A stretch of DNA of 35,590 nt from Thermoplasmata archaeon (GCA_007129655.1 SKVC01000063.1:1-35590), one strand, 5' to 3'. Shown: positions 10,924 through 35,590, counted from the first letter of the stretch. The notes: generated from the sequence alone by a model not told the origin. Translations and numbers: made by a program.

Positions 10924-11218
10924 AGATATCTATTATCCCTTCTGGTTCTACCCCTGATTTGTGTGCACCTCTTGCTATAGCATGGGCTATCATAGGGTTT
11001 ATCATGGCTATCAAAAATGCCAGTATCAAGAATTTGACCTTTATCAACATGGGTGCCTCCGCCACGATAGTTAGAGCTATCAGTATGCTCATGGCACCCC
11101 CGGTATCGCACTTGGTAGATGCATGAAGTCGGGTATAAACATCAGGAAATCGAAGGACTCCTATACTACCTGTGATCATCAGTATCACACCCAGTAATAA
11201 AAACACATATTCTATCAT
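10904..11218 (-). CDS. mnhG: Mrp/Mnh antiporter subunit G
   Basis: GVLRFPDVYTRLHASTK and NPMIAHAIAR. Confidence 0.93.
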   Translation of the reverse strand: MIEYVFLLLGVILMITGSIGVLRFPDVYTRLHASTKCDTGGAMSILIALTIVAEAPMLIKVKFLILAFLIAMINPMIAHAIARGAHKSGVEPEGIIDIYARDGF

Positions 11219-12635: not shown

Positions 12636-13205
12636 ATGTCAAAGTTCGTAGTTTTCGAGGGTATCGACGGCTCGGGTAAATCTACCATAGCCAGGGAACT
12701 GGACATGTCCATCGGACAGCTTTTAATCACCAGCGAGCCGACGGACTCGGATGTGGGGCGGCTGGCCGATAAGGCGGCATACGAAGATACAACCCCGTAC
12801 CTGGAATTGTTTTTGTACCTGGCTGACAGAGCGGGGCATACAGAGTTTATAAAAAAAGAGATGACGAAAGGGTATAATGTACTCTGCGATAGATACTGGG
12901 GCTCCACAGCGGCTTATCAAGCGGCCCATGGGATGATGGAAATGGACTATCTGGTGGAGATACAGATGCCCTTCGTTCTGGAAGCGGATATCACGATCCT
13001 ATTCGACCTACCGGTAGAGGAAGCATTAAAACGGATCTCCGGCAGGGACGATACCAGCAAGTACGAGCGTATGAATTTTCTGGAAAAAGTGAGGGAGAAT
13101 TATCTCAAATTGGCACGGGAGCACGGCTGGGAGATCGTAGATGCCGGCAGAAGGCTGGAAGAAGTGAGAGAAGACGTGCTGGCGTTGGTCGAAAGTATAT
13201 TGTAA
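12636..13205 (+). CDS. tmk: Thymidylate (dTMP) kinase
   Basis: FVVFEGIDGSGKST P-loop, LFLYLADRA.H and LCDRY.GST.AYQ. Confidence 0.94.
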   Translation: MSKFVVFEGIDGSGKSTIARELDMSIGQLLITSEPTDSDVGRLADKAAYEDTTPYLELFLYLADRAGHTEFIKKEMTKGYNVLCDRYWGSTAAYQAAHGMMEMDYLVEIQMPFVLEADITILFDLPVEEALKRISGRDDTSKYERMNFLEKVRENYLKLAREHGWEIVDAGRRLEEVREDVLALVESIL

Positions 13206-13252
13206 AAATAAGAAAAAAAACATCACAAAATCTTCATCGATTTCTTGCGATT

Positions 13253-13286
13253 ATTTGCCCGTAAATTGCCATTAGAATGTCATTCA
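13253..13286 (+). repeat. Left copy of island-flanking direct repeat (core ATTTGCCCGTAAATTG, 13253-13268)
   Basis: 16-bp exact match to 24415-24430; imperfect similarity continues to TCATTCA. Confidence 0.8.
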
Positions 13287-13307
13287 CCGCACCTTAACAA
13301 ACATCCT

Positions 13308-13350
13308 TCAACCCCACTTCCGCCTCCGCACACTCGTCGCCACCGTCACC
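13308..13350 (-). pseudogene. Stranded remnant of a PEF-CTERM protein C-terminus (VTVATSVRRRKWG*)
   Basis: 13333-13350 is identical (18 bp) to 14644-14661. The translation parallels the tail VTVATRVRRKKER* of 14619-15962. Confidence 0.7.
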
Positions 13351-13386
13351 GATAGTGATCCAAAATATCAAGTCTTATCACATTTT

Positions 13387-13722
13387 TCACAGATCATCCA
13401 GCATTTTCTCGAATGCTGATTTCAAAGGCGGGATCTCCTTCGTAACGGTGTTCCAAACCCTTTTGGTGTCCGCTCCGAAATAAGCATGGATCAGTTTGTT
13501 TCTCATCCCTACTATATCCCTCCAGGGGATTTCCGGATATTTCTCTCTTACTTCATCCGGAATATTCCTGACTGCTTCACCAATTATCTCTATCGACCTG
13601 ATCGTGGCATATATGGTTTTATCATCTTTACAAAAAGTGTCATAGTCCATACCCTCAACAAATTTCATACCCTTGTTCGCAGCATCGATCACATCCTGAA
13701 TGTAATCACCGACTTCCCTCAT
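13387..13722 (-). CDS. hepT: HepT-like (DUF86/HEPN) ribonuclease toxin
   Basis: [14 protein letters not shown] and RNKLIHAY (RX4H with adjacent Tyr). Confidence 0.92.
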
Positions 13723-14042
13723 GCGTAGACGACCTCTTTCATGATCTGTTTCCCTATCCGCGGCTTCAGTGCGGATTCCTCCACAAGGTCAACCTTCACC
13801 CCGAGAAGATCGCTGAGGTGGTTCTCGATCTCCACAAATTTCAACAAACCCAAATCCGCATCCTCTGAAAATTCAACCAGTATATCAAGGTCGCTCCCCT
13901 CACCAGCCTCGCTCCGCACATATGAACCGAAGATTCCGATCTTCTCGATTCCGTATTTTCTCCTCAATTCATTTTCATGTTCCTTGAGGATGTTTGTGAT
14001 TTCCGCGAGCTTATCATTTTTACCTTTCATATAATTTAACAA
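13719..14042 (-). CDS. mntA: MntA-like minimal nucleotidyltransferase antitoxin
   Basis: IGIFGSYVR.....SDLDILVEF and [13 protein letters not shown] overlap with hepT. True start may be MKGK at 14030. Confidence 0.92.
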
Positions 14043-14096
14043 CGTTTTCTCCTAATTTTAACTTTCCCATCAAAAACAGGCTTGGAAATAATGCCA

Positions 14097-14602
14097 TACG
14101 CGGTCTATAGAAGAACGAATCGAACGACATCAGCATGAAGATTTCGGATGACCGGGGGATGACTTGGAACGAGCCGATCTCACTTTTGAAGCCGACGGAC
14201 AAGGTGGAACGTATCGAAATCGCCTCCGACGGCGACAAGGTGCTCGTGATGTGGGCGGCGTCAAGTTATTACCAGTTGATATACAGTACGAACGGGGGTG
14301 CGTCGTGGGAAGTGGATGTGAACGAGTACGAGTACACCGGTCGTTCATACCCTGCGGTTGATATCGAAAACGGATATATCTACGTGATCGCGGTGAAGTC
14401 TGCATCGACTACCGAGGAGCAGTCGGTGGGACTGACGGCTGAAGAGCCGCCTCTCGTTGGGACATATACCGAGTTGAAGTGGGGGCCCGAAGGCAGCGAA
14501 GAAGTTAACACGAAAAACCTCGAGATGGCTTATTCCGTCTCCGACATCGAAGTGGTTGGAGAAACGGTATACATCGCCGCTCTTTCTTCAGGGAAAAAAT
14601 GA
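14097..14602 (+). pseudogene. Orphan fragment of a BNR/Asp-box propeller module, homologous to the C-terminus of 16154-18682
   Basis: SDDRGMTW and STNGGASW Asp-boxes, no signal peptide or anchor. Colinear with the gene B C-terminus; 1-nt frameshift at 14109-14110 after YAVY. Confidence 0.75.
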
Positions 14603-14618
14603 GTAAAACCTCGAATAT

Positions 14619-15962
14619 TTATCTTTCTTTTTTACGCCGTACCCTCGTCGCCACCGTCACCATCAACATCGTCGCAACCACCGGAACTACGATGTTACCG
14701 AACTCCGGTATCGGCTCGCCGAAGTCAGGGCTTCGCTTGTAGTATATTTCGGAGTTCCCGTCGCGTAGATCGTGCCATACGACATGCTTCATGTTATTGA
14801 CCAGAGCTATACTGGGTCGCCAGGAGTCGTTTGTAGCGTTAGTAAGCCTCAAATCGTCATTCCAGGAGATTCCACCGTCTAATGACTCTTTGAAATATAT
14901 TTCCGCATTCTCTCCGTCATCTATTCGATCAGCCCAAACTATATTGACTTCGTCACCTTGAACGGAAATATCGGGATTTGAGATGATCGGACTTGGACCG
15001 GAAAGTTGCTGCGCCGGATTCCACGTCACGCCGTTGTCCGTCGAGCGGCGGTAGTAGAGGTAGTAGTCCGGCTCCGACCCTGGCCACACTTGTTCCACCC
15101 AAACAATGTGGATGTTGGAGTTGTAAACAGCCATAGCAGATACCACTGAATCCGATGTAGTTTCGGATATTCTTCTTCCGAAGTCTTCATTTCCTAAACC
15201 GTCTTCCCATGTATATCCGTTGTCTTTTGAGATCATCCAATAAATTTGCCAATTCCCGTGTCTTCTATCACACCACGTAACAGCTATATTGGATTCATGG
15301 CCCGCCATCCTGGTTTGAGTGATCGCCGCCGGTGCATATGTTATTCTTCTATCGCTGTCGTCTCCCTGCCCGTTATCAAAGGTTTCACCACCATTTAAAC
15401 TTCTACGATAATATATCTCCCCGTCATCTCCATCTCTAAGGTCCATCCACGATATATGAACGTTAGAACTGTTCACGAATACTTTCGGCCCTTCGGAGTT
15501 ATGTCCGTCGTCGCTGGAGATCATCTGCTCGGTGAGCCAGGTTACGCCTCCGTCTTCCGAGCGGCGGTAGAAGATCTCCCATGCAGGTGTTTTCCAATCA
15601 CCCCAGACGATAGATACGTTGTTCCCTGCAAGTCCGACATCTGGCCAACTAGCCAAAACCCCACTATCAGAGATTTGAAATGGTGTACTCCATGTATTTC
15701 CTGAGTCTATCGATGACATATGATACACTTCAGTAGTATCATCGCTCCAACCTTCATAAGAGATATGAAGGGAAGAACTGTAAACATCTATATTTGCTTT
15801 ATAACCATGTGTCGGAGGATATGTCAACCTGATGTCCTCGCTCCAATTCTCCAGCGGTCCTTCTGAGACCTCAGGTGTTCCGGCAATCATATTAATAGGA
15901 ACGAAAAGTGATACAACCAGAATAACCGTCAAGGCTACCGTGCAGATTACCTTCGTCCTCAT
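14619..15962 (-). CDS. Gene A: secreted BNR/Asp-box (sialidase-fold) beta-propeller protein with PEF-CTERM anchor
   Basis: Signal peptide, six SxDxGxTW-type boxes, C-terminal IPEF + TM helix + basic tail. Confidence 0.88.
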   Translation of the reverse strand: MRTKVICTVALTVILVVSLFVPINMIAGTPEVSEGPLENWSEDIRLTYPPTHGYKANIDVYSSSLHISYEGWSDDTTEVYHMSSIDSGNTWSTPFQISDSGVLASWPDVGLAGNNVSIVWGDWKTPAWEIFYRRSEDGGVTWLTEQMISSDDGHNSEGPKVFVNSSNVHISWMDLRDGDDGEIYYRRSLNGGETFDNGQGDDSDRRITYAPAAITQTRMAGHESNIAVTWCDRRHGNWQIYWMISKDNGYTWEDGLGNEDFGRRISETTSDSVVSAMAVYNSNIHIVWVEQVWPGSEPDYYLYYRRSTDNGVTWNPAQQLSGPSPIISNPDISVQGDEVNIVWADRIDDGENAEIYFKESLDGGISWNDDLRLTNATNDSWRPSIALVNNMKHVVWHDLRDGNSEIYYKRSPDFGEPIPEFGNIVVPVVATMLMVTVATRVRRKKER

Positions 15963-16085
15963 GGTATTACAATAACATCTGAGGAAGTTAATAACTCTTG
16001 CCGTAGCCTTGATGTTTTACCTATATTTATACCCCCTCGCCCCCCAATATATATAATTATTCGACGTAAGTTATTAATAGAACTA

Positions 16086-16105
16086 TGCTGTTAAGGTTAA
16101 CAGCA
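16086..16105. promoter_or_regulatory. Perfect palindrome TGCTGTTAA-GG-TTAACAGCA, candidate operator
   Basis: 9-bp perfect arms with a 2-bp spacer, downstream of TATATATAA (~16048-16056) in the divergent A/B intergenic region. Confidence 0.5.
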
Positions 16106-16153
16106 ACCTTTACCAAAAGGGGAGAAAACTATGAAGAGAAAGGAGAGAAGAAC

Positions 16154-18682
16154 ATGATGGAAGATAAAAATAGAAGTATGGTGATTGGGCTTTGTTTTAT
16201 GATCGTATCTGCACTGATATTCAGTGCTGCCGCCGTACCGGCGTTTCCGGTTGAGGATGATGAAGTCAACATACCTCAAACAGCCACCATCGGTCCGGAG
16301 CTGGATCTTGAAATGCCACTGACGGAAATGGAAGCCGAGATGAGGGATGAACCATCTCTTCGAGAGTTATACGACCGTCCGATATTCGACAGAGAACCTC
16401 ATAGGAACTTTATGTACGATGATTTTGATATGCTCTTACATCCGCAGGATAGTTTGAACGCCGAGGAGGAAGAAAGCGACGGACCCGAGAGAACTTTTAT
16501 CGGAGTAACATCCATTCGGGCGGATTCACCCGTCATATACCTGAATCAGGATAATATGATATATTTTACTGTAAATAATTTAGGTGGGGATGTAGGTGAC
16601 GCTGCATATACCGAGAACATAACCGCAGCGATTGAAAGCATCGAAGAACTTCGTGATCAGTATAGCGGGCATCCTCGTGTGGGACAGCTCGAAAAGGCAA
16701 TCGAACGTCTTGAGGAAGCTCTGCTACTGGTTTCGGAACATCAGCGTGAAGAATCTATAAAATCCGTAAGGCAGGCCGTAACTCACTTAAACGCCGCTGG
16801 CCAGGGAAGACAGGGGATACTTACTGAACAGATAATAATTGAGCTCGCTGAAATCGTACAGTTTAAAGTGACCACCGTTATTAATGAAGCAACCTCTAAC
16901 TTCGGCTCTGAACATCCTGATGTGCAGGAAGCAGAAGACATCTACGAGGATGCTGTAGATAAGCTCGACAACGGGAAGTACATACCGGCGATGAATCGTT
17001 TCAGGAAAGCCTTTGAGACCGTACTCGGTGCATATATCTGCGATGTAAACCTTGAACTATACTCATGGATGAGAGACGGTTACGAGAGCGAGATAGGGAA
17101 TGGATTTATCGAGTCTTTCGAGGCCGAATCGTATGAAGTTATCACCCTAACATGGAGTCCTACTCGGAGGGGAATACATTACGTCAGAACAAACATAACG
17201 GGTGAATACATGGTCTATAGTTCTGATGGTGAAAAAGTTGAAAGTCCGACTAAACTCTTTAGCACGGGATTTGTGGTTACATCGGAGGATGAGCCTGAAA
17301 AATGGGGTCCAGGTTACAATTACACTAGTGTTATAACCGTTGAAGAGGGTATTAGGTATCGTGATGGTCCTCTTGTTATTGAGGTTTACGATGATCTGGA
17401 GATCCAATCGGGTGCAGCCCTCCAGCTCAACGAGTCGATAACTCTTGTGATGATGAATACAGAGCCCGGGGAGTTTTCGATCCTAATCGAACCCGATGGG
17501 ACTTTCATCATCGAAAGCCCTGTTGAATCCGCAACGATTACTTCATCAGACGAGGGATATAGAAACACTTACCCCTTCATCAACCATGGGAATGTCCACT
17601 TCACCGGTGCTGCGGTTATGGACACACACGGCCCCGACGACCTCTCTCTACCCGCAGGCATACAGAACCTCCCGGGAAGCACGTGCATACTCGACAACAC
17701 CAACATCCTGGAGGCCGACACCCACAGCGTGTACGCATCGGAGGATTCATCCGTGCAGATAATGGGCGCCGATACGGTCATCGGGCGTGACCTGGATGGG
17801 CAGGAAGATAACGATGAGATCGCAAAAGGCCATGGGATCTTCATCGAGGGCGCCGTGCCGAACATACGGGATGTGACGGTAAAGTACAATCGTCAGGACG
17901 GCATACGTGTTGTCGATTCAAAACCCGGGCCCATACAGGCGGCCAGCCTGCACGAGTACGACTCCGGCGACTACGACCGCCAGCTGACTCATGACGACAA
18001 TACGTCCACTTTGCCCGTAATCGTCGCAGGGAACGGAAACCTGTATATGGTTTACCTGGACGAGGATGCACAGCACATCAACTTCATGAGGTCTTCGGAT
18101 CAGGGCAGTACATGGAGTGCTCCAGCGGTAGTTCCCGGGAGTGAGGTGGAGGAAGGATTCATCCGGAACATCGATATCGATGCCGACGGTGACAACCTGG
18201 CGGTTGCATGGGATGTGTGGATACCGTGGGATGGCGTGATACCATATGGGTTGACCGGAGAGGACGAAGGTCAACGTTATATCGTGAAACTTAATGTACA
18301 GCACAGTTCAGACGGAGGAGCGAGTTGGGCGGATGTACCCTATGTAATAGATGATTCGTCCTTCCCATCGGTGGCCGTCGAAGGGGATACCGTGTATGTT
18401 GCATATTATAAGGGACCGTACTATCGGGATCTGTATATGCCGTATCCTGTTACCGTCAGGATACGATGGGCCGCCGATGGCTGGGAGGAAGTCGAAGAAC
18501 ATGTATTCGATATCATGGTGGGCGTCCCAAAGGTGGCTGTAACCGGCGAGACCGTGCACGTGGCTATCGCCGGTTTCGAAGAGATAATATACGTGCGCAG
18601 TGACGATGGTGGCGTAGATAGCTCAGAAATGTTTATCAACGGGCTAAGTTATATGGCTGTCACGAGAGGCAGGACATGGTAA
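16154..18682 (+). CDS. Gene B: large secreted protein (Ig-like region with helical insert, beta-helix, partial BNR propeller), apparently 3'-truncated
   Basis: AGGAGA SD before ATG 16154 (ORF track starts at 16085). Signal peptide; N-terminal ~470 aa paralogous to gene D; ends mid Asp-box (YVRSDDGG). Confidence 0.8.
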   Translation: MMEDKNRSMVIGLCFMIVSALIFSAAAVPAFPVEDDEVNIPQTATIGPELDLEMPLTEMEAEMRDEPSLRELYDRPIFDREPHRNFMYDDFDMLLHPQDSLNAEEEESDGPERTFIGVTSIRADSPVIYLNQDNMIYFTVNNLGGDVGDAAYTENITAAIESIEELRDQYSGHPRVGQLEKAIERLEEALLLVSEHQREESIKSVRQAVTHLNAAGQGRQGILTEQIIIELAEIVQFKVTTVINEATSNFGSEHPDVQEAEDIYEDAVDKLDNGKYIPAMNRFRKAFETVLGAYICDVNLELYSWMRDGYESEIGNGFIESFEAESYEVITLTWSPTRRGIHYVRTNITGEYMVYSSDGEKVESPTKLFSTGFVVTSEDEPEKWGPGYNYTSVITVEEGIRYRDGPLVIEVYDDLEIQSGAALQLNESITLVMMNTEPGEFSILIEPDGTFIIESPVESATITSSDEGYRNTYPFINHGNVHFTGAAVMDTHGPDDLSLPAGIQNLPGSTCILDNTNILEADTHSVYASEDSSVQIMGADTVIGRDLDGQEDNDEIAKGHGIFIEGAVPNIRDVTVKYNRQDGIRVVDSKPGPIQAASLHEYDSGDYDRQLTHDDNTSTLPVIVAGNGNLYMVYLDEDAQHINFMRSSDQGSTWSAPAVVPGSEVEEGFIRNIDIDADGDNLAVAWDVWIPWDGVIPYGLTGEDEGQRYIVKLNVQHSSDGGASWADVPYVIDDSSFPSVAVEGDTVYVAYYKGPYYRDLYMPYPVTVRIRWAADGWEEVEEHVFDIMVGVPKVAVTGETVHVAIAGFEEIIYVRSDDGGVDSSEMFINGLSYMAVTRGRTW

Positions 18683-20064
18683 GGCTCCCGAAAATGGGTG
18701 TGCAGCGGGCACGAAAGAGGAAGCGGGAAAGTAGGTCGAAGTATGTTTCCATCATTATCGTCTTTCTGATTATGGTCGTGGTAGTGCTGGGCGGTGCGAT
18801 GTTGTCCGATACTAACTACAGTTCAAGTGCATACGATTACAGGACGAGAAGTCCACCCGGCTGGAGCGAGGATGTGAGGATATCGTACAATTCTACTTCC
18901 GATCGAGAACCAGCAATTGCAGTTGAAGGTGAAGTTGTACATATTGTGTGGAGGAGTACATGGTTTGGAGGACAAATATTTTACACTAAATCAAATGATG
19001 CGGGAGAAAACTGGAACGAGCCAGTGATGATAGGTCCTTTGGATTATGGTTGTATGAGACCAGATATTGCTGTTAGCGGTGATGATGTGCATGTGGTATG
19101 GGAGAACAATAACGCTTCGGCCCGGGAGATTAGGTATCTGAGGTCTGTTGATGGTGGTGACACATGGCTCCCCGAACGGATGATCTCCAGCGACGACGGG
19201 AATAACTCGCAGGCCCCGAAGATCGCCGTGAGCGAGGACGGGATGGACGTGCATGTTGTCTGGGTCGATAGCAGGCATGCGGATGAGTCGTTTCCTCCTA
19301 ACCTCGAACTGTACTACAACCGCAGTCATGATAGAGGCTTGACATGGGAAGGAGAAATGCGTCTTACCGAGGCAGATTATGAATCAACAGGACCGAATAT
19401 AGCTGTTGTGGGGTCTTCAGTACACGTAGTTTGGATGGACGAACGTGCCGGAAAGTGGGATATTTATTACAGGCACTCACTTGACAGGGGAGCGACATGG
19501 GATGGAGAGGTTATAATATCCGACAGCCCTAATCACGAAGGGCCGGCAGACGTAGCTACATCTGGAGAGACCATACATGTGGTTTGGGATCGAACCGTAT
19601 CTGGCGAAGACTTGATCCTTCACCGTATGTCTACGGACAACGGAGGAACATGGAGCGAATCACAGGTTCTTACAACTTCACCCGTTCGAGCAGTTCGACC
19701 AAGAATAGTTACAAATGGAGATGAAGTACATATGGTGTGGTTTGACGGACGAGATGGGGGAAATGAAATATATTATAAGAACTATGTATCTGAAGTCTGG
19801 GGAGCAGACACCAGACTTACATACACGGACAATAGCGAATCACTGAGTCCTAACATAGCCATTGATAACGATAAAATACATGTAGTATGGCATGATGACA
19901 GGGATGGAGATCTCCCAGAGATTTATTACAAACGTAACCCCGATTTTATCAATGTGCCTGAGTTTGGACATGTATTACTCCCTGTAATCGTAACAATCAT
20001 TATTTACGTTATTTATATATATAATCAGAAAAAAGAAAAACATAAAAGGAGGACAAAAACATGA
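18676..20064 (+). CDS. Gene C: BNR/Asp-box beta-propeller protein with PEF-CTERM anchor, paralog of gene A
   Basis: N-terminal TM/signal, repeated H(V/I)VW...IYY..S.D.G.TW blades, VPEF + TM + basic tail. Confidence 0.88.
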   Translation: MVRLPKMGVQRARKRKRESRSKYVSIIIVFLIMVVVVLGGAMLSDTNYSSSAYDYRTRSPPGWSEDVRISYNSTSDREPAIAVEGEVVHIVWRSTWFGGQIFYTKSNDAGENWNEPVMIGPLDYGCMRPDIAVSGDDVHVVWENNNASAREIRYLRSVDGGDTWLPERMISSDDGNNSQAPKIAVSEDGMDVHVVWVDSRHADESFPPNLELYYNRSHDRGLTWEGEMRLTEADYESTGPNIAVVGSSVHVVWMDERAGKWDIYYRHSLDRGATWDGEVIISDSPNHEGPADVATSGETIHVVWDRTVSGEDLILHRMSTDNGGTWSESQVLTTSPVRAVRPRIVTNGDEVHMVWFDGRDGGNEIYYKNYVSEVWGADTRLTYTDNSESLSPNIAIDNDKIHVVWHDDRDGDLPEIYYKRNPDFINVPEFGHVLLPVIVTIIIYVIYIYNQKKEKHKRRTKT

Positions 20065-23000
20065 AAATAGATGAGAAAATATTGAGCATATTGGCTACAC
20101 TACTGATACTGCTAAGTTCAGTAGCTGTAACCGGAGTATCGAGCATTTCGTACGAAGAAGAAACGAACGAATCGACTATGATATATCACAGTGAAGAAGA
20201 TATGACGTCCTTGAGTGGAAAGCTGACCGACACTTTTCTGAAAGTCGAAAGTGTCAGAGCAGATAGTCCCGTGGTATATCTCGATCGGAATAATAATATC
20301 TCCGTGAAAATATTAAATTCTGGAGCAAATGTAGGGGATGAATCCTACACCGAGAACATAACCGCTTCAATCGAAGACATCGAAGCTCTCCTTGAATTAT
20401 ACTCAAATAATCCAAGAAACAAACTCCTGGAAAAAGCGATAGAGAGTCTTGAGGAGGCTCTGTTGCTGGTGTCGGAACATCAACGAGAGGAATCTATAAA
20501 ATCGGTACGTCAAGCGGTTGTACATCTTCACGCAGCCGGCCAGGGTAGGCATGGGATACCGAGAGAAGATGTGATAACCGCACTGGCGGAGACTGTCGAA
20601 CTGAAAGTTTGGACAGTGATAGAACAGGCGAGAAGTAGCTTCGGGTCTGAACATCCTGATGTGCATGAAGCGGAGGACATATACGAAGATGCCGTAGATA
20701 AGCTCGAAGACGGGAAGTATATACCAGCGATGAATCGTTTCAGGAAAGCCTTTGAAATAGTGCTTGGTGCGTATGTATGTGATGTTAACCTTGAACTATA
20801 TTCATGGATGAGAGACGGTTATGAGAGCGAGATCGGGAGTGGGTACATAGAGTCATTTGAAGCCGAATCGTACGAAGTTATTACGATAACATGGAATCCT
20901 ACTAGAAGAGGGATAAATTATGTGAGGGTGAATATAGCGGGTGAGTACATTGTCTATAGCTCGGATGGAGAGGCGGAGGAAAGCCCTACTAAGACATTTA
21001 GCTTCGGCTTTGTAGTTACATCTGAGGATGATGAAGAAGAAAGGTGGGGGCCAGGTGGTCCTGGGGCAGGTTATCATGATTATAGTAATGTTAGCGCAGA
21101 TGAGGGTATACGTTATCGTGATGGACCACGAATAATTTTTGTCGAGGATAGTAATCTAACCATCGAATCGGGCGCAGCGCTACAGCTCAACGAGTCGATA
21201 ACTCTTGTGATGGAGAATGAATATGCTGAACAATTTTCGATTGTCATCGAACCCGATGCAGCATTCATCATCGAGAGCGAAGTAGGTGATGATATTTCAA
21301 CGATAATTACAGCACCTAACCGTAATACATACCCATTCCTAAACCACGGCACAGTCCACTTCACCGGTGCTTCCGTTATGAAGACCTTTGGGAACCGTAG
21401 CGATCTCGAAGAGCCCGCCGGCATACAGAACCTCCCCGGGAGCACTTGCATACTCGACAACACAAACGTACTCGAAGCCGACACCCACAGCGTGTACGTT
21501 ACAGGTAATACGGAAGCACATATTCGAGGAACCGAAACGATAATCGGTCGGTTGGATGAACACAACGAGAACATAGCTACGGGACATGGGGTCTTCGTCG
21601 ATGGAGCTACATCGCATATCGAGAATGTGACAGTGCAACACAACCAGATGAATGGAATAAAAATTTTGTCATCTAGCTACAACAACATAACAAACAACAT
21701 CTTGTTGACCAACAACATTGGCATATATTTAAGATTCGCACACGACAACCTTATCAACAATAACACTGCGCCATCTAACGACGAGTATGGAATTTACCTT
21801 ATGAAATCCGAAAGAAACACTATTACCAACAACACAGTCAAAACTAACTACCGCGGTTATTATGGTATTTATCTTCGGGAGTCTAATAGCAACACTCTTG
21901 AGAACAATAGTGCAAATTCGAATTCCGAAGGTATTTTGCTCATGTTGTCATCAAACAATAAAATACATAACAACACCGCCAACTCGAATGACTTCCGAGG
22001 TATTTACCTAAGCGCGTCCTCGGACAACACCATCACCAACAACATCGCCAACTCGAATAATTGGGCCGGCATCTACTTTGATACCGACTCTAGCTACAAC
22101 GTCATTGGGAACAATGACCTCTCAAAAAATGGTTTTGGCATCGTCATCCAGAGGTCATCCAACAATATTATCCAGAATAATATTGCAACCATGACTGTAG
22201 ACCGCAGTATCTACCTCCTAGCCTCATCTAACAACAACACTATTTACAACAATACCGCCAATTCGGAGTACAGACACGGTATATACCTTCAGAGATCTCA
22301 CTACAATACCATCTCTAACAACGATGTATCAGACAACGATAGGGATGGAATCTATATCGAGTGGTCCAGTAATAACATTCTGAAGAAAAACATAGCTTAT
22401 TTCAATGGCTACAACGGCATCTACCTATATTCATCTTGCAACAATACAATCATTAACAATCTCGCAAAAGACAACAATAGAGATGGATTCTACCTCGATA
22501 TGTCTGACGGGACCAAAATTGTCAACAACACCGTTTTGAACAACAATTACGGTATCTATCTCTCATCTTCTAAAAACAACACCATCGCCAACAATACCCT
22601 ATCGAACAATTACCACGGAATCTACATGGAGGGTTCTTCTTCGTCGATCATCAGGAACAACCGCATAGGCACGGCCTACTATTCCGTTGAAAACGAACTC
22701 GTGTACGGACCAGCCAGCGGTGGCGAAACATGGCCATTCTATTTAGATAACGAGTATATATCAGAATGCACCCTCTATCTCGATAACGGTTACGAGCTGT
22801 ATGAATTGACGGAAGGAGTTGATTATATTTTAGACTATGAACAGGGTGAGATATACTTGATCGACTGGACATTGAGTACTGGTGACATCATCTATGCGGA
22901 CTACACTTACCTGATACCAAACGACGGCAATATCTATGGGATATACAGTATTGAATCATCTCCAACGATAGAGGGCAATAAGATCATTTGGAATGAGAAA

Positions 23001-24047
23001 GACGGAATACATATAGACAACTATGGAGATCTTACTCACACACCGGTAATCAAAGACAATACGATCTACGGCCATCGGGACGGTGTGGGTGTAAACGTGC
23101 TCAACTCGGCTGTACTGATAAAAGATAATCTCATCGCCAGTAACAGGGACGGTGGGATAATTATGTATAACTCCACAGGTGAGATAAATCAGAACATAAT
23201 CAATGGTAACTGCCGTCCGTGGTCATACACACCACCGGAGTGGATGTATACAGGGATACATCTACTCCAATCCGATAACGTATGGATACATAATAACAAT
23301 CTCTCTTCCAATCGTGTAAATATCGCTATTGAACAGTCCTCCAACATAAATATCGAGTGGAATGAAATAATAGATCAACCCGCAATCGAGATCAAGATAT
23401 ATCCTCCTCCGCCATCGACACGTGGTATAATCTCCATTGATTCTCAAAGCGAGATATCGAACAATACCATCAGAGGTACTTCTTATGGAATGATTATCGA
23501 ATATGCAGATGATACTACAATAATCAACGACAACAAGTTCTATCCCATGGAAGAATACGGGGCGCTCAATGCACTACACCTGAAGTGGTCCTCGCCGATA
23601 ATAAAGAACAATAATTTCTCTCATGCGGAGGGTTGGGGTATTTACTCGATCTACGGAGCTCCCGCCAACAGCGGAGTCAACGGAACTCAACTGATCGAGG
23701 AGAATACATTTGGTTATTGTGGTCAAGGATGGGTAGTGCAGTACTGGCGGTTCCAGGTACGCGTTTTAGAACATGATGAAGCCGTTGAAGGCGCCGATGT
23801 CGTGATCTGGGACAATCTCGGTGGCGCTGCGGTATGGGAAGGAACCACCGACGAAAACGGTGATACAGACGAAATCGTTCTGCCCCAGTATTCGTGGGAT
23901 TCCGAAGGAGAGAAGACACAGTATTCACCCTATACGGTATTGGTAGATTCCGATTACTGGTACCTCATATCATATATCCATCTGGAATCGAATATCCTGC
24001 TGGAAGTTGATGTCGGTACGGGGGATCATACGATAAAACCATACTGA
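20061..24047 (+). CDS. Gene D: large secreted parallel beta-helix (NosD/CASH repeat) protein
   Basis: Signal peptide, shared chassis with gene B, many N.I.NN.A..N...GIYL..S repeats, C-terminal VEGADVVIWD..GTTDENG beta-sandwich. ATGA overlap with gene C. Confidence 0.88.
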   Translation: MKIDEKILSILATLLILLSSVAVTGVSSISYEEETNESTMIYHSEEDMTSLSGKLTDTFLKVESVRADSPVVYLDRNNNISVKILNSGANVGDESYTENITASIEDIEALLELYSNNPRNKLLEKAIESLEEALLLVSEHQREESIKSVRQAVVHLHAAGQGRHGIPREDVITALAETVELKVWTVIEQARSSFGSEHPDVHEAEDIYEDAVDKLEDGKYIPAMNRFRKAFEIVLGAYVCDVNLELYSWMRDGYESEIGSGYIESFEAESYEVITITWNPTRRGINYVRVNIAGEYIVYSSDGEAEESPTKTFSFGFVVTSEDDEEERWGPGGPGAGYHDYSNVSADEGIRYRDGPRIIFVEDSNLTIESGAALQLNESITLVMENEYAEQFSIVIEPDAAFIIESEVGDDISTIITAPNRNTYPFLNHGTVHFTGASVMKTFGNRSDLEEPAGIQNLPGSTCILDNTNVLEADTHSVYVTGNTEAHIRGTETIIGRLDEHNENIATGHGVFVDGATSHIENVTVQHNQMNGIKILSSSYNNITNNILLTNNIGIYLRFAHDNLINNNTAPSNDEYGIYLMKSERNTITNNTVKTNYRGYYGIYLRESNSNTLENNSANSNSEGILLMLSSNNKIHNNTANSNDFRGIYLSASSDNTITNNIANSNNWAGIYFDTDSSYNVIGNNDLSKNGFGIVIQRSSNNIIQNNIATMTVDRSIYLLASSNNNTIYNNTANSEYRHGIYLQRSHYNTISNNDVSDNDRDGIYIEWSSNNILKKNIAYFNGYNGIYLYSSCNNTIINNLAKDNNRDGFYLDMSDGTKIVNNTVLNNNYGIYLSSSKNNTIANNTLSNNYHGIYMEGSSSSIIRNNRIGTAYYSVENELVYGPASGGETWPFYLDNEYISECTLYLDNGYELYELTEGVDYILDYEQGEIYLIDWTLSTGDIIYADYTYLIPNDGNIYGIYSIESSPTIEGNKIIWNEKDGIHIDNYGDLTHTPVIKDNTIYGHRDGVGVNVLNSAVLIKDNLIASNRDGGIIMYNSTGEINQNIINGNCRPWSYTPPEWMYTGIHLLQSDNVWIHNNNLSSNRVNIAIEQSSNINIEWNEIIDQPAIEIKIYPPPPSTRGIISIDSQSEISNNTIRGTSYGMIIEYADDTTIINDNKFYPMEEYGALNALHLKWSSPIIKNNNFSHAEGWGIYSIYGAPANSGVNGTQLIEENTFGYCGQGWVVQYWRFQVRVLEHDEAVEGADVVIWDNLGGAAVWEGTTDENGDTDEIVLPQYSWDSEGEKTQYSPYTVLVDSDYWYLISYIHLESNILLEVDVGTGDHTIKPY

Positions 24048-24414
24048 GAACATTAAATCTTCTCGAACTCGATGTGATGCAAAGGGGATATCAGCTAACA
24101 GGTCGCTGACAGAACAGGGTTGGAGATAATATGCTATCGAGAGGTATGCTGAAAGGATGTTAACGGTATCCTTGAATAGGGAGTGATCATCTACCACTCG
24201 CTTTCAGACGTACTAGCACAATGGATGAGAGTGATCCTTTATCTGCAATTTACGCTCTGTTAAAAGTGTATTGAACCGAATAGATAATGGACAATGCCAA
24301 AAGTTCTAAAAAACTTTTCGCTGTCCACTAAAAAGTGTTTTAATGAACATATCAGAAAGCTTGCGCTTTATAATAGATCGTCTATAGACTCACCCGACTT
24401 ACATTACAATAAGA

Positions 24415-24446
24415 ATTTGCCCGTAAATTGGCGTTAGTATCATTCA
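24415..24446 (+). repeat. Right copy of island-flanking direct repeat
   Basis: ATTTGCCCGTAAATTG at 24415-24430, with dyad AATTT-GCCCGT-AAATT. Confidence 0.8.
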
Positions 24447-24614
24447 GAATGCTATCGCATTCTAAAAACTCGTGAAGCAGAGCTTCCCTCGCCAGCAGGA
24501 ATGCAGAGCATTCCTCCAGCTCGTAAATCATAGATTTACTCGTCTCCCCCTCGGCGCTTTTTACAATTCGAATATTCATGAGAATTTAAAAAACAAGAAG
24601 AATCTTTGATTCTT
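24446..24614. repeat. Array of short perfect hairpins (REP/MITE-like or structured ncRNA)
   Basis: AGAATGC-TATC-GCATTCT, GAAGC-AGA-GCTTC, AGGAATGC-AGA-GCATTCCT, GTAAATC-ATA-GATTTAC and AAGAATC-TTT-GATTCTT. Confidence 0.7.
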
Positions 24615-24710
24615 TGGAGTCTTCATAACTTCCGAACAATGTGATGAAGTTTGAAGGTGAAGAAAATATTTGATTTTGTGTACCTTTTTATTTTACCCGC
24701 TTTGTTTTTT

Positions 24711-24730
24711 ATAAAAATAAGGGAAGGGGT
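24711..24730 (-). terminator. Pyrimidine/oligo-T tract after the thermosome gene
   Basis: Minus strand CCCCTTCCCTTATTTTTAT about 30-50 nt after the stop, typical of archaeal terminators. Confidence 0.4.
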
Positions 24731-24761: not shown

Positions 24762-26420
24762 TTACATCATGCCGCCCATGCCGCCCATTCCTGGTGGCAT
24801 TCCGCCGGCTCCCGGTGGCATTCCGCCTTCGCCGCCACCGCCGCCTTTGGATGCGACTACGTCGTCGATCCTGAGGATCATGTTGGCGACTTCGGTAGCT
24901 GCCTGGATGGCCTGGTTCTTTACACGGAAGGGCTCGATTACCTTGCCCTCGATCATATCGATTATCTCTCCGCTGATGATCTCGATCCCGTGGGTGTGCT
25001 TGCCGTCTTTCTCGTGGGCAGCGTTCAGCTTCATGAGTATGTCGATACCGTCCATACCTGCGTTCTCCGCAAGTGTGCGGGGTATTATGGAGAGTGCCGA
25101 TGCGTATGCTCTTATAGCAAGCTGTTCACGACCTTCAACGGTGTCCGCATAGTCCTCGAGTTTATTCCTTAGCTCGATCTCCGTAGCACCGCCGCCGGGC
25201 AATATTGCGCCGTCTTCGATGGCTACAGCGACTACCTTGAGTGCATCGTGTATAGCTCTCTCAAGCTCGTCGACTATATGGGATGTACCGCCTCTGAGTA
25301 ACAGAGATACGGACTTACCTTTGTCTGCTCCTTCTATGAAAGTCATGTGATCGTCGGCTATCAGCTTTTCGTGTACCGAATCTGCTTTGCCCAGATCTTT
25401 CTTTGTTAGATCCTTCAGATTGGTAACGACCTTGGCTCCGGTAGCTTTGGCCAGCTTCTTCATGTCGGATTTCTTGACACGGCGTATCGCAAAGATACCT
25501 TTCTTAGCCAGGTAGTGCTGTGCTAGATCATCGATGCCTTTCTGGCATAGGAGTACGTTTGCTCCAGCCTTGACGACGTAATCCACCATGTCTTTTATGG
25601 ATTTTTCTTCTTCATCAAGGAATTGCTGCAGTTGATCAGGACTGGTTATCTCTATTTCAGCGTCCATCTCTGTGTTCTTGATCTCGATCGCGGAATCCAA
25701 CAATGCGATCTTAGCATCCTTTACTTCCTTGGGCATGCTGGGATGGAGTCGTTCTTTATCAAGTATCAAGCCGTTGATGAGTTCCGATCGATTCACACTA
25801 GCGCCAGCTTTCTTCTCGACTTTGATGTTATCTATATCGACTACGAAGTTACCGTCTTCCTTTTCGGCGACCTGTTTTACCGCTGTTACCACCATATTGG
25901 CTAGTTCTATCTTGTTGCCTTCGATGGATTTACCGGTCATCGCGGTCATTGCGACATCCTTCAAAAGTTCTACATCGTCTATGTCGATCTCTATCTTAGA
26001 TTCTTCAAGAATTTCACCGGCCCTGATCGCGGCCATCCTGAATCCCTTGGCTATTATGCTGGGATGGACTTTCTGTTCGATGAGATCCTCGGCGTGTTTC
26101 AAGAATTCTCCGGATAGTACCACAACAGTTGTGGTTCCGTCACCGCATTCATCGTCCTGACTCTCGGCTACCTCGACTACCATCTTGGCAGCCGGGTGTT
26201 CGATGTCAATTTCGCTAAGTATAGTTGCACCATCGTTGGTGATCACAACGTCGCCCAGGCTGTCAACGAGCATCTTGTCCATGCCCTTTGGTCCTAGGGT
26301 AGTTCTAACCGCGTCAGCGATGGCTTTTGCGGCTGCGATGTTCTTTTTCTGAGCATCGCTGCCTCGTTCGCGTGTCGTGCCTTCTTTTAACAGTAATATT
26401 GGTTGGTTTCCTCCAAACAT
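24762..26420 (-). CDS. ths: Thermosome subunit (group II chaperonin)
   Basis: [36 protein letters not shown] and a GGM-rich tail. SD AGGTGG. Confidence 0.98.
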
Positions 26421-34228: not shown

Positions 34229-35590
34229 ATGGTCTTCAGAAGAACATTGATTTTGGTTATCACATTTGTGTTGTTAGTGGGTATGTTGTCTTTTGATAAT
34301 GGTTTTATTCTAGGAAAAGGCTCTTCTAATTCATATTCGAAAATATCCGGTAACCATTATTCCGGTGAAGGTACGCTGGAAGATCCTTATATGATATATG
34401 ACATAAATGACTTGCAGGCTATCAATGAAAATTTGAACGCTCATTATGCGTTAGCCAACGACATCGATGCTAGTGATACTATGAGTTGGAACTTCGGTTC
34501 CGGGTTCCAACCCTTGGGGCCAGGTCCATACGACAATAATGCGAATTACTTTAAAGGCAGTTTGGATGGTCGTAATCATGTAATAAGTGGATTACACATA
34601 AATCGCCTTGAAGAAGGCCAGATCGGCTTATTCGGATGCATAGACTGGACAGGAACTGTGAAGGATTTGGGTTTAATAGACCACAATGTAACCGGAGGTA
34701 ATCATGTGGGTGCACTTGTAGGTTACAACGAAGGTACGCTTTCCAATACTTATGCAGACGGGAATATCACCGGCATAAGTACCGTCGGAGGACTTGTAGG
34801 ATGGAACTATTGGGGTGAGGTGAAAAATTCTTACGCAGCAGGAAAAACAGTCGGATTATGCTGCGGCGGTGGATTGATAGGTGGTGACTCTGTAGGGATA
34901 ATAGAGAATTCGTTTTATGACAAGGAAACAACTGGTAGGTCCGATACTGGTAGAGGTGTAGGTAAAACCACATCGGAGATGATGACTATAACCACTTTTG
35001 AAGAAGCTGATTGGGATATAATCGCAGTGGATGATTTCAACATCAGAGACACCAATTTTACATGGAATATTGTGAACGAGAAAAGCTATCCATTTTTGAG
35101 TGGTATGGCTGTATCGATGAGAGAATATTCGCTACAAATAGAAGTCATGGGTCAGGGTTCGACCATCCCAGCTCCCGGTACACACATATTTACTGATGGT
35201 CAAGAAGTGCGGATAGATACGATCTCCGAACTAGAGTGGGTATTTAGCCACTGGACGGACGATGAAGGACTTATTTCCAAAGATGATAATATAGTTATCA
35301 CTATGGACGGAGATAAGTTTCTTACGGCACATTTTACAGTAAGAGAAGCTATAAACCCCCCAATAGTAAACATAATTACTCCCGAAAACGAAGATATTTT
35401 TGATACGTGGAGTATAATATTAGAGTGGGTTTCCGAGGAAGGGACTTACCCTATAATACACTATAAGATAAGGTTTAACCACGGAGATTGGTATAACATC
35501 GGTGTACTTGATTCCTATCTTTTAGAAAATTTAGAAGATGGGGAACACAATGGTTCATTGAAAGTAGTCGATGAGATGGGTAACGAAAAT
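34229..35590 (+). CDS. Secreted GLUG-motif surface protein with InlB-B/Flg_new-like and Ig-like domains (runs off window; absent from ORF track)
   Basis: Manual translation MVFRRTLILVITFVLLVG...GEGTLEDPYMI...HYALANDIDAS...FKGSLDG...VGALVGYN...VGGLVGWN...WVFSHWT...PPIVNIITP. No stop before the window end. Confidence 0.85.
   Translation, partial: MVFRRTLILVITFVLLVGMLSFDNGFILGKGSSNSYSKISGNHYSGEGTLEDPYMIYDINDLQAINENLNAHYALANDIDASDTMSWNFGSGFQPLGPGPYDNNANYFKGSLDGRNHVISGLHINRLEEGQIGLFGCIDWTGTVKDLGLIDHNVTGGNHVGALVGYNEGTLSNTYADGNITGISTVGGLVGWNYWGEVKNSYAAGKTVGLCCGGGLIGGDSVGIIENSFYDKETTGRSDTGRGVGKTTSEMMTITTFEEADWDIIAVDDFNIRDTNFTWNIVNEKSYPFLSGMAVSMREYSLQIEVMGQGSTIPAPGTHIFTDGQEVRIDTISELEWVFSHWTDDEGLISKDDNIVITMDGDKFLTAHFTVREAINPPIVNIITPENEDIFDTWSIILEWVSEEGTYPIIHYKIRFNHGDWYNIGVLDSYLLENLEDGEHNGSLKVVDEMGNEN

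Follow-up and report, generated by a model that had tools for sequence, protein, structure and literature searches.

Silent-cassette antigenic variation is represented by pilE/pilS of Neisseria and vlsE of Borrelia, and polymorphic-toxin loci of the Rhs/CDI type combine a constant N-terminus with variable C-terminal toxins and orphan toxin/immunity cassettes. Among archaea, homologous recombination and mobile elements were reported to diversify the cell-wall island of Haloquadratum walsbyi (PMC4535781). Here, a contig of 35,590 bp from a metagenome-assembled genome (MAG) of a Thermoplasmata archaeon (GCA_007129655.1, SKVC01000063.1), hereafter the window, was analysed over its entire length, and a block of about 11.5 kb lying between the thymidylate kinase gene tmk and a thermosome subunit gene was delimited. 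This block is probably a flexible, strain-variable surface-protein island shaped by general recombination in an uncultured soda- or salt-lake member of this lineage. The preliminary description of this DNA had proposed a cassette-shuffling locus; a variable, recombination-shaped surface locus was indeed found, but with a single orphan, no cassette array and no recombinase in the window, and nothing in the findings requires a dedicated cassette-shuffling system.

From left to right, the island consists of a short non-coding end, the genes of a HepT-like toxin and a MntA-like antitoxin, an orphan gene fragment, a propeller gene (A), a giant gene (B), a second propeller gene (C), a second giant gene (D) and about 660 bp of non-coding DNA. 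Like the Haloquadratum island, it is a strain-variable block in a core context; it probably encodes surface proteins, as that island does, and its variants may likewise co-occur in hypersaline populations. However, it belongs to the Thermoplasmata, involves other protein families, is small (11.5 kb), repeats a propeller/giant pair, and shows a precise 10-bp junction repeat together with debris of tRNA flanks. With pilE/pilS and vlsE it shares a truncated paralog near an expressed gene and, in a congener, a segmental identity tract; in contrast to those systems, there is one degraded copy and no array, no recombination signals or factors were identified, and no evidence of high-frequency switching was found here. 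The island would represent a flexible surface island resolved to the base pair in an uncultured archaeal lineage, and would add a case to the known pattern in which hypersaline strain-level diversity concentrates in cell-surface islands.

Insertion site and boundaries of the island

The window is contig C33 of the source MAG (G000; 1.63 Mb, 159 contigs, 90.5% complete). It was compared with 40 further genomes (41 in total), among which G001–G004 are congeners and G012 belongs to another genus; the public records of the relatives are titled uncultured Thermoplasmata archaeon MAGs. Additionally, short Logan contigs of four metagenome runs (X1–X4) were matched to the window at 90% likeness, and the sequencing runs with island sequence are labelled soda-lake, salt-lake or sediment metagenomes. 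The tmk and thermosome genes were found to be direct neighbours in 5/5 relatives (G001–G004 and G012), with a spacing of 56–330 bp, and the boundaries of the island were fixed by aligning these empty sites to both junctions of the window, as follows.

12636–13205, plus strand: thymidylate kinase gene tmk (PF02223, 2.3e-37), the conserved left flank
13203–13212, no strand assigned: left copy of the 10-bp junction direct repeat TAAAAATAAG
13213–24711, no strand assigned: island body of about 11.5 kb, without counterpart between tmk and the thermosome gene in G001–G004 and G012
24712–24721, no strand assigned: right copy of the junction direct repeat TAAAAATAAG
24762–26420, minus strand: thermosome subunit gene (PF00118, 2.4e-186), the conserved right flank

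With their 3′ ends, tmk and the thermosome gene thus converge on the island, the product of the latter being 90–94% identical in amino acids (aa) in the congeners, and the tmk stop codon falls within the left repeat copy. The repeat TAAAAATAAG has only two copies in the window and one copy in the empty site of G004. In X3, a contig of 18.6 kb, about 94% like the window, ends exactly at 13212, and another contig starts at 24712, preceded by 20 letters that, but for one mismatch, we take to be the 3′ end of tmk and hence an empty site in a related strain. The structure of the tmk–thermosome interval is therefore not identical across relatives, in line with the variability that the preliminary description had expected: the island is absent in all five, and an apparent empty-site form is present in a metagenome. 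The genes around the island are of core function (SMC/ScpA, ABCE1, TGT, Mrp antiporter, LSm, Trm1 and FtsZ).

The island itself was recovered independently. Zero-mismatch contigs in the four runs reproduce most of it, the X1 records spanning 14123–15769, 16426–17743, 18556–21498 and 21469–24076 and X2–X4 holding more pieces, while the left junction is bridged by record 9 of X2 (13049–13400) and record 26 of X4 (12850–13378). The runs with identical island contigs come from four different samples taken in different years.

Related clusters are found elsewhere on the chromosomes of congeners. In G001 the cluster follows a his-operon/HAD gene, a place taken by a different 2-kb gene in G002 and G003, and a second G003 cluster lies on the opposite side of the his operon, indicating that the block occupies different chromosomal sites in congeners; the G000 assembly yielded none of the his-operon genes that flank the G001 island. 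Separately, the 330-bp tmk–thermosome spacer of G001 (L016, G001:C53:13450-14250) was observed to hold an apparent short hydrophobic open reading frame (ORF) that is not present in the four other relatives, so this spacer seems to accept other small insertions.

Paired propellers and giants of a modular chassis family

The large genes of the island encode two propellers and two giant proteins, the latter sharing a region of about 480 aa that is here called the chassis. Domain searches of the window proteins were made against Pfam, NCBIfam and PADLOC.

14619–15962, minus strand: propeller A (PF13088, 1.2e-13), with a signal/transmembrane segment, a BNR_2 propeller and the PEF-like tail PEFGNIVVPVVATMLMVTVATRVRRKKER
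16085–18682, plus strand: giant B, 865 aa, with a putative signal peptide, the chassis (residues 137–617) and a truncated BNR module
18676–20064, plus strand: propeller C (PF13088, 9.5e-11), with a PEF-like tail
20061–24047, plus strand: giant D, 1328 aa (PF13229, 2.5e-87; PF05048, 3.7e-74), with a putative signal peptide, the chassis (residues 58–543), NosD-type beta-helix repeats and a distinct C-terminus

Both arrangements recognised at the outset, namely a divergent A/B pair and a translationally coupled C/D pair, were recovered, and B and C proved to be coupled as well. As B and C overlap by 7 nt and C and D by 4 nt, B-C-D look like one operon; a scan for bacterial promoters and terminators gave no signal above the shuffled level. 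The claim that B and D share one chassis and differ in their C-terminal modules also held, since 339 of 521 residues (65%) are identical and, downstream of this region, B continues into a BNR-like module and D into NosD/beta-helix repeats. The secretion cue for the island proteins is the N-terminal hydrophobic, signal-like segments seen in the translations.

Propellers A and C are both BNR_2 propellers and are 36% identical to each other, C being 59% identical to its G001 ortholog. Each has a hydrophobic N-terminus and, at the C-terminus, a PEF motif followed by a hydrophobic helix and a basic cluster. The family to which they belong is very large (1,776 matches at E ≤ 1e-10), and many of its members are bacterial proteins with type IX secretion system (T9SS) tails, named exo-alpha-sialidase by their sources. 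The island propellers share with these bacterial BNR_2 proteins the repeat consensus and the possession of a lineage-specific C-terminal sorting or anchor tail, but this tail is PEF-like, with a transmembrane helix and a basic cluster, rather than Por_Secre_tail, and the propeller gene is always paired with a chassis giant. Indeed, a propeller gene adjoins the chassis gene in 8/8 assessable cases (G000 B, G000 D, G001:C2, G001:C95, G012, G016 twice and L059), the pairing being unassessable at contig ends in G003:C139, G003:C93, L039 and L060.

PEF-CTERM tails are described as recognised by archaeosortase C (PMC5244752), and this assignment had been adopted for the island in the preliminary description. 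It did not find backing, because the models remained below their cut-offs (TIGR03024 on C with 18 bits against 23; TIGR04296, PEFG-CTERM, on A with 17.8 bits against 25) and the archaeosortase C gene artC was not found in G000. Two weak Exosortase_EpsH (PF09721) matches of 25.8 and 16.4 bits were detected in G000, and archaeosortase-like ORFs in four congeners reached 44–50 bits against a cut-off of 100. The tail of A and C may be processed by a divergent archaeosortase, or may serve as a simple membrane anchor.

No Pfam family covers the chassis. In G000 it occurs in two copies only, B and D; full-length strong matches were found in G001, G003, G012 and G016 and partial, weaker ones in six more genomes, giving any match in 11/41 genomes (G000 counted). 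Among the congeners it was found in 2/4, with no match in G002 (90% complete) and G004 (94% complete). A word-indexed search of 5.8 billion proteins returned seven chassis proteins, two of which are those of the window, and a hidden Markov model (HMM) search of 1.84 billion representatives returned 119 at E ≤ 1e-3, five of which cover the whole profile, the others matching either the helical insert (profile positions about 36–180) or the beta part (about 197–476), at differing places in other giant proteins.

The AF2 model of the chassis reached a pLDDT of 93.9 with a 46-row alignment, an earlier 5-row alignment having given 53. Two strands are predicted, then a six-helix bundle inserted in a beta-sandwich, then coils of short strands. 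In Foldseek, the sandwich matched the CARDB domain 3idu_B with a probability of 1.00 and the coils matched the beta-helix adhesin PfbA (4mr0_B) with 0.95. Matches of the whole model (STAT3 and similar) had TM scores of 0.1–0.2 and were dismissed as topological coincidence, domain-level matches being used instead. In this model the chassis is thus a CARDB-like sandwich into which six helices are inserted and after which a right-handed beta-helix begins.

The members of the family measure 865, 888, 1325, 1328, 1668, 1745, 2329, 2404 and 2497 aa, and their architecture, once the homologs were collected, turned out not to be fixed:

P0006 (1745 aa) and P0007 (1668 aa), prototype-like: signal peptide, chassis, full BNR propeller, beta-helix and C-terminal domain
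P0008 of G003 (1325 aa): prototype layout without the last domain
B of G000 (865 aa): ends within the propeller module
B′ of G001 (888 aa): ends within the propeller module
D of G000 (1328 aa): without the propeller module
G001:C95 (L023), P0010 and L060 (2329–2404 aa in the complete ones): chassis preceded by about 940 aa that comprise an S8 peptidase
G016 (2497 aa): Kelch repeats added, with an in-frame TAG in the chassis

The chassis is consequently not always N-terminal, given the S8-chassis fusions, and these subtilase fusions (L023, P0010 and L060) suggest that some members are surface proteases. Taken with the pairing of genes, this points to an undescribed modular protein family that is encoded beside a membrane-anchored BNR propeller.

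The genes of the island are under purifying selection, as dN/dS values, with dS saturated, were 0.14 for the B/D chassis, 0.18 for B/B′, 0.06 for the B module, 0.21 for C/C′ and 0.21 for A/A′. In a maximum-likelihood tree of 13 chassis segments, B and D of G000 are sisters (100/99) and both G001 copies fall in one clade. Such clustering within genomes would fit either concerted evolution or independent duplication, and the two are not separable in G001, where the contig ends within C′.

Several further observations concern this family. In L021 (G016:C97), a single in-frame TAG at about 11069–11076 splits the chassis gene into ORFs of 404 and 2497 aa; pseudogenisation, stop read-through or a sequencing error might each be the cause. 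The chassis of L039, from a record titled Bacteroidales bacterium MAG, is identical to that of P0010 (zero branch length) and lies among Thermoplasmata proteins; mis-binning of this contig into a bacterial MAG of the same series of samples is the probable reason. A C-terminal domain of about 175 aa without Pfam match was observed at L018:9751-10278 and at the C-termini of P0006 and P0007; it is 79% identical between the G001 orphan and the G012 giant. At about 46% identity it is also present on the G000 contigs C149, C78 and C126, which suggests a separately shuffled module.

The orphan, recombination among paralogs and competing explanations

The orphan was delimited as follows.

14084–14602, plus strand: orphan, remnant of the BNR module of a third paralog, truncated at its 5′ and 3′ ends (ORF 14135–14602, 155 aa)

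It is 28% identical to residues 670–827 of B (E 1e-9), and from window position 14084 it aligns to residues 37–191 of a 447-aa ORF of G001, its first 123 nt being 81% identical to this G001 orphan. The latter occupies the same position, upstream of and convergent with an A-type propeller gene, and the order orphan-A-B-C is common to G000 and G001. The G001 orphan matches residues 547–895 of P0006 and then jumps to residues 1565–1741, indicating an internal deletion of the beta-helix, and it is preceded in another frame by a signal-peptide-like ORF of 47 codons, indicating a frameshift. From these alignments, the orphan is therefore best read as a third paralog that has been broken. In G000, the toxin–antitoxin (TA) unit appears to have taken the place of its 5′ part; the homology of this unit to its copy on G000:C55 ends at 14099. 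A third variant of the B module, as first noted, is thus upheld by the similarity to B and by the G001 ortholog, but the frameshift then ascribed to it was not seen in the window and belongs to the G001 copy. Orphans were found only in G000 and G001 and in none of the six other loci scanned, G016 having a short truncated chassis gene.

Evidence for exchange between paralogs comes from the congener. Between the orphan and B′ of G001, a stretch of 592 nt is 91% identical and includes 238 consecutive identical nucleotides, whereas the 359 aligned positions just upstream of this run are 58% identical. None of 20,000 shuffles of matched positions reached such a run (0/20,000; shuffle maximum 171), and the tract bears the classic signature of conversion or recent recombination between linked paralogs. 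Exchange of sequence among paralogs of the chassis family is thereby shown. For B and D of the window, in contrast, the exact identity blocks put forward in the preliminary description do exist (longest runs 30 and 29 nt in chassis regions of 69% nucleotide identity), but at chance level: in shuffles the longest run averaged 19.9 nt, with 28 as the 95th percentile and 44 at most, and the longest same-codon run among identical residues was 12 (p=0.095). As both tests were marginal to non-significant, gene conversion between B and D in the G000 window was not retained.

In the metagenomes, contigs of X1 and X2 join 14090 to 17800, at the same B-equivalent position where the homology between orphan and B begins in G001. 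These joints we read, the contigs being short, as co-occurring strains with a longer orphan. Other joints were 14563 to 18643 (X3), 14717 to 14138 (X4) and B/D-chimeric ones at homologous positions (X2 and X4); they are compatible with structural variants among related strains and, coming from single short contigs at 90% likeness, serve as leads only.

We consider it rather probable that ordinary homologous recombination among paralogs, together with their duplication, truncation and internal deletion, accounts for the diversity of the family, and that the island is gained, lost and relocated as a block with no dedicated switching machinery. A and C would be membrane-anchored propellers, and B and D large secreted proteins in which the shared chassis is followed by exchangeable modules, either a BNR propeller or a NosD-type beta-helix, to which relatives add an S8 peptidase, Kelch repeats or a C-terminal domain. 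In the orphan we would see a third paralog in decay, its 5′ end having given way to a mobile HepT-MntA unit. The block may earlier have been sited beside a tRNA-Ser integration hotspot and have been transferred as a whole, perhaps in circular form; the former tRNA-Ser site is proposed because of the tRNA-flank debris at the right end and the contiguous arrangement in G003 described below. The likely driver would be selection for surface diversity, with viruses and attachment substrates as candidates.

Several observations weigh against this interpretation. The orphan frame is open over 155 codons and its dN/dS against G001 is 0.14 (first 45 codons, dS saturated), which, for so small a sample, is not typical of an old pseudogene. 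The joints between the orphan and B (14090 to 17800, 14563 to 18643 and 14717 to 14138) could mean a more frequent or directed exchange, and they themselves come from short Logan contigs at 90% likeness, perhaps from related organisms. There is no integrase, and the 10-bp repeat fits a target duplication or microhomology alike. For the sorting tails, only A and C carry them among the 1,492 stop-terminated frames of at least 150 aa in G000, and artC (TIGR03762) had no match in this assembly, whose completeness of 90.5% makes the absence no proof. The cell-envelope role predicted for the island proteins derives from their domain types. Finally, all compared genomes are MAGs, in which chimeric contigs are possible.

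Programmed surface variation, in which segments of the orphan, as a silent cassette, would be copied by gene conversion into the expressed gene (B or D) and an exposed module would switch often and reversibly, would account for the mosaic of the G001 orphan, whose 5′ part is orthologous to the G000 orphan (81% of nucleotides) and whose middle is the 238-nt identity with B′ next to a 58% flank, as well as for the low dN/dS of the orphan codons (n=45), the joints between the orphan region and B in three metagenomes and the clustering of chassis copies within each genome. We nevertheless regard it as quite unlikely, since each locus has a single orphan and no array, and orphans are limited to G000 and G001 among the loci scanned. 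In the window, moreover, the orphan is cut at both ends and its 28% identity to B indicates no recent exchange; that of G001, with its own signal peptide and frameshift, resembles a gene that was disrupted more than a cassette without a promoter. No recombinase or dedicated factor was found in the island, and one conversion tract can arise in any linked paralog pair. If conversion were nevertheless frequent and directed, this would be the first archaeal surface variation of the silent-cassette type, as far as limited literature searches, none of them aimed at this claim, allow one to say. The opposite possibility, that the locus is the decaying relic of a laterally acquired element once inserted at tRNA-Ser, with neutral gene loss and non-adaptive variation, seems doubtful rather than far-fetched. 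It would explain why B ends inside its propeller module when compared with prototypes of 1,668–1,745 aa, why the orphan is truncated with a TA unit inserted into it, why tRNA-Ser/Ala flank debris lies without a tRNA in a window devoid of integrase, and the in-frame TAG of the G016 chassis gene; however, A–D have remained long, uninterrupted ORFs that carry putative signal peptides and whose starts overlap and are coupled, their dN/dS values of 0.06–0.21 denote purifying selection, and identical island contigs recur in the runs of four samples from different years.

An Rhs/CDI-like polymorphic-toxin locus, whose logic the preliminary description had invoked, is barely credible: the formal layout alone fits, with a shared N-terminal region, differing C-termini and one orphan, but the variable modules consist of BNR and beta-helix repeats of a structural kind, searches of Pfam, NCBIfam and PADLOC revealed no Rhs/YD, toxin or immunity family, no demarcation motif was seen, no small gene follows B (C does) or D (non-coding DNA does), and the chassis is not N-terminal in the S8 fusions of relatives. 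Hardly more probable is an assembly artefact, in which the island or its junctions would be chimeric joins. Paralogous repeats in a MAG of 159 contigs do favour misassembly, but zero-mismatch contigs from independent runs reproduce the island and bridge its left junction, and the order orphan-A-B-C recurs in G001, so the chimeric junctions that the preliminary description named as a refuting case are unlikely. As for a tRNA-targeting integrative element, which has an integrase and att repeats at a tRNA gene, the locus does not appear to qualify because no integrase is present in the window and the island is not at a tRNA. Elsewhere in the assembly a single tyrosine recombinase match (PF00589), partial in extent, was detected on contig C70. 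It is also conceivable, and we attach little likelihood to it, that the pieces form a small mobile surface-variation module in which a PEF-tailed propeller is the cell-bound partner of a secreted chassis giant, a truncated paralog kept under purifying selection donates segments by gene conversion to the expressed giant, and the block relocates as a circle. Relocation as a circle would explain the contiguous ends in G003:C139 and the differing sites in congeners, and such donation, if true, would give archaea an equivalent of the silent-cassette antigenic variation known from bacteria.

The toxin–antitoxin unit and the island ends

The remaining features lie at the two ends of the island.

13253–13278, plus strand: left copy of a 26-nt direct repeat (23/26 identical to 24415–24440, 16 exact)
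13308–13367, minus strand: PEF-type tail-end remnant (transmembrane end, basic cluster and stop), its translation ending in SLSVTVATSVRRRKWG
13387–13722, minus strand: HepT-like HEPN RNase toxin (PF01934, 4.1e-29, 101 bits)
13719–14042, minus strand: MntA-like nucleotidyltransferase antitoxin (PF01909, NTP_transf_2, 1.6e-19, 70.5 bits)
24262–24387, plus strand: tRNA-Ala-flank-like stretch, 81–85% identical to stretches of G001:C4 and G003:C38 about 185 nt from tRNA-Ala genes
24415–24440, plus strand: right copy of the 26-nt direct repeat
24440–24625, plus strand: hairpin array with a tRNA-Ser 3′-end remnant (about 24540–24559) and native tRNA-Ser downstream flank

The TA pair was corroborated by both Pfam matches, which exceed their cut-offs, and by a 4-nt overlap of the genes. 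The predicted catalytic motifs RNKLIH (HepT) and GS...DLD are found in the translations, and MntA matches the PADLOC candidate PDC-S09 (1.7e-30). The pair resembles the HEPN/MNT type VII TA systems (PMC7641770) in its adjacent overlapping genes, its Rx4H motif and its Pfam scores above cut-offs. It differs from them in that the NCBIfam equivalogs score below cut-offs (MntA with 46.5 bits against 60) and in behaving as a mobile module, at about 93% nucleotide identity across genomes and contigs. Second copies of HepT share 97% aa identity on G000:C55 and 96% in G003; positions 13334–14012 are 93.2% identical to G003:C139, where the adjoining chassis DNA is only 65–74% identical, and 13384–14099 are 93–94% identical to G000:C55, where the copy lies beside unrelated genes. 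These comparisons mark the TA unit as a mobile module. The island and the TA unit occur together in two genomes (G000 and G003), and the unit also occurs away from any island. A stabilising effect of the unit, which had been suggested at the start, is possible, the observation being one of association with a module also found on C55. In that second HepT-MntA locus (G000:C55:7199-8064), about 150 nt are inserted between the genes and a macro-domain-like ORF adjoins.

The tail remnant matches the tail of A over 23/25 nt (92%; 13326–13350 against 14637–14661) and reads VTVATSVRRRK. The resemblance to A that led to its description as a stranded PEF-CTERM tail is thus real, but the remnant has no PEF motif and, in the comparison with G003:C139, overlaps the edge of the conserved 3′ flank of the TA unit. 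Likewise, the 26-nt repeat taken for a flanking repeat exists but lies inside the island, 40 bp from its left and about 270 bp from its right end, and the true junction repeat is TAAAAATAAG. It has two copies only in G000, and a third copy was found downstream of a chassis gene in G003:C139.

The hairpin array was confirmed and belongs to an element that is dispersed across the family near tRNA-Ser genes. Positions 24440–24625 are 87% identical to G000:C93:431-602; matches to the right end were found in 21/24 genomes of the family and 0/16 outside it, with tRNA-Ser within 11/20 of the copies fetched (most stretches being only about 400 nt). The copies show two hairpins of 7–8 bp followed by TCGTCTCC(C/T)CCTCGGCG, which corresponds to the 3′ strand of both the T-stem and the acceptor stem of the tRNA. 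Across 10 copies, 94% of the cells pair and 7/15 pairs are changed on both sides; this covariation score was reached by 0/500 shuffles, and slid controls paired at 30–46%. The scan for tRNAs found no intact tRNA in the window, and Rfam gave no gathering-level match there, its matches at 24263–24383 (E 0.37) and 24589–24697 (E 0.55) being at chance level. An ORF of 65 aa at 24382–24579 was not accepted as a gene, since stops interrupt its frame in the C93 copy.

In the congener G003, contig C139 carries, in the same orientation, a chassis gene, right-end-like pieces and the 26-nt repeat fused to the tRNA-Ser remnant, and continues through about 170 nt to the tail remnant and the TA pair, so that both ends of the G000 island are contiguous there. 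The arrangement would fit a circular intermediate or a formerly tandem arrangement.

As to the hairpin element itself, it was also observed at G000:C93:349-602 and in loci L025, L028 and L041–L047, usually at most about 250 nt downstream of an intact tRNA-Ser(CGA/UGA), and it could represent a small RNA not yet recognised, or else the scar left by integration of a miniature element. Directly downstream of a tRNA-Ser(UGA) and the hairpin element, G000:C93:623-3184 (L061) holds a DUF835 gene between two genes of Ras/Roc-family small GTPases. At the far end of the window, an ORF with a GLUG motif (34229–35590), open at its 3′ end, adjoins a UDP-GlcNAc 2-epimerase gene and is possibly another large surface protein that runs off the contig end.

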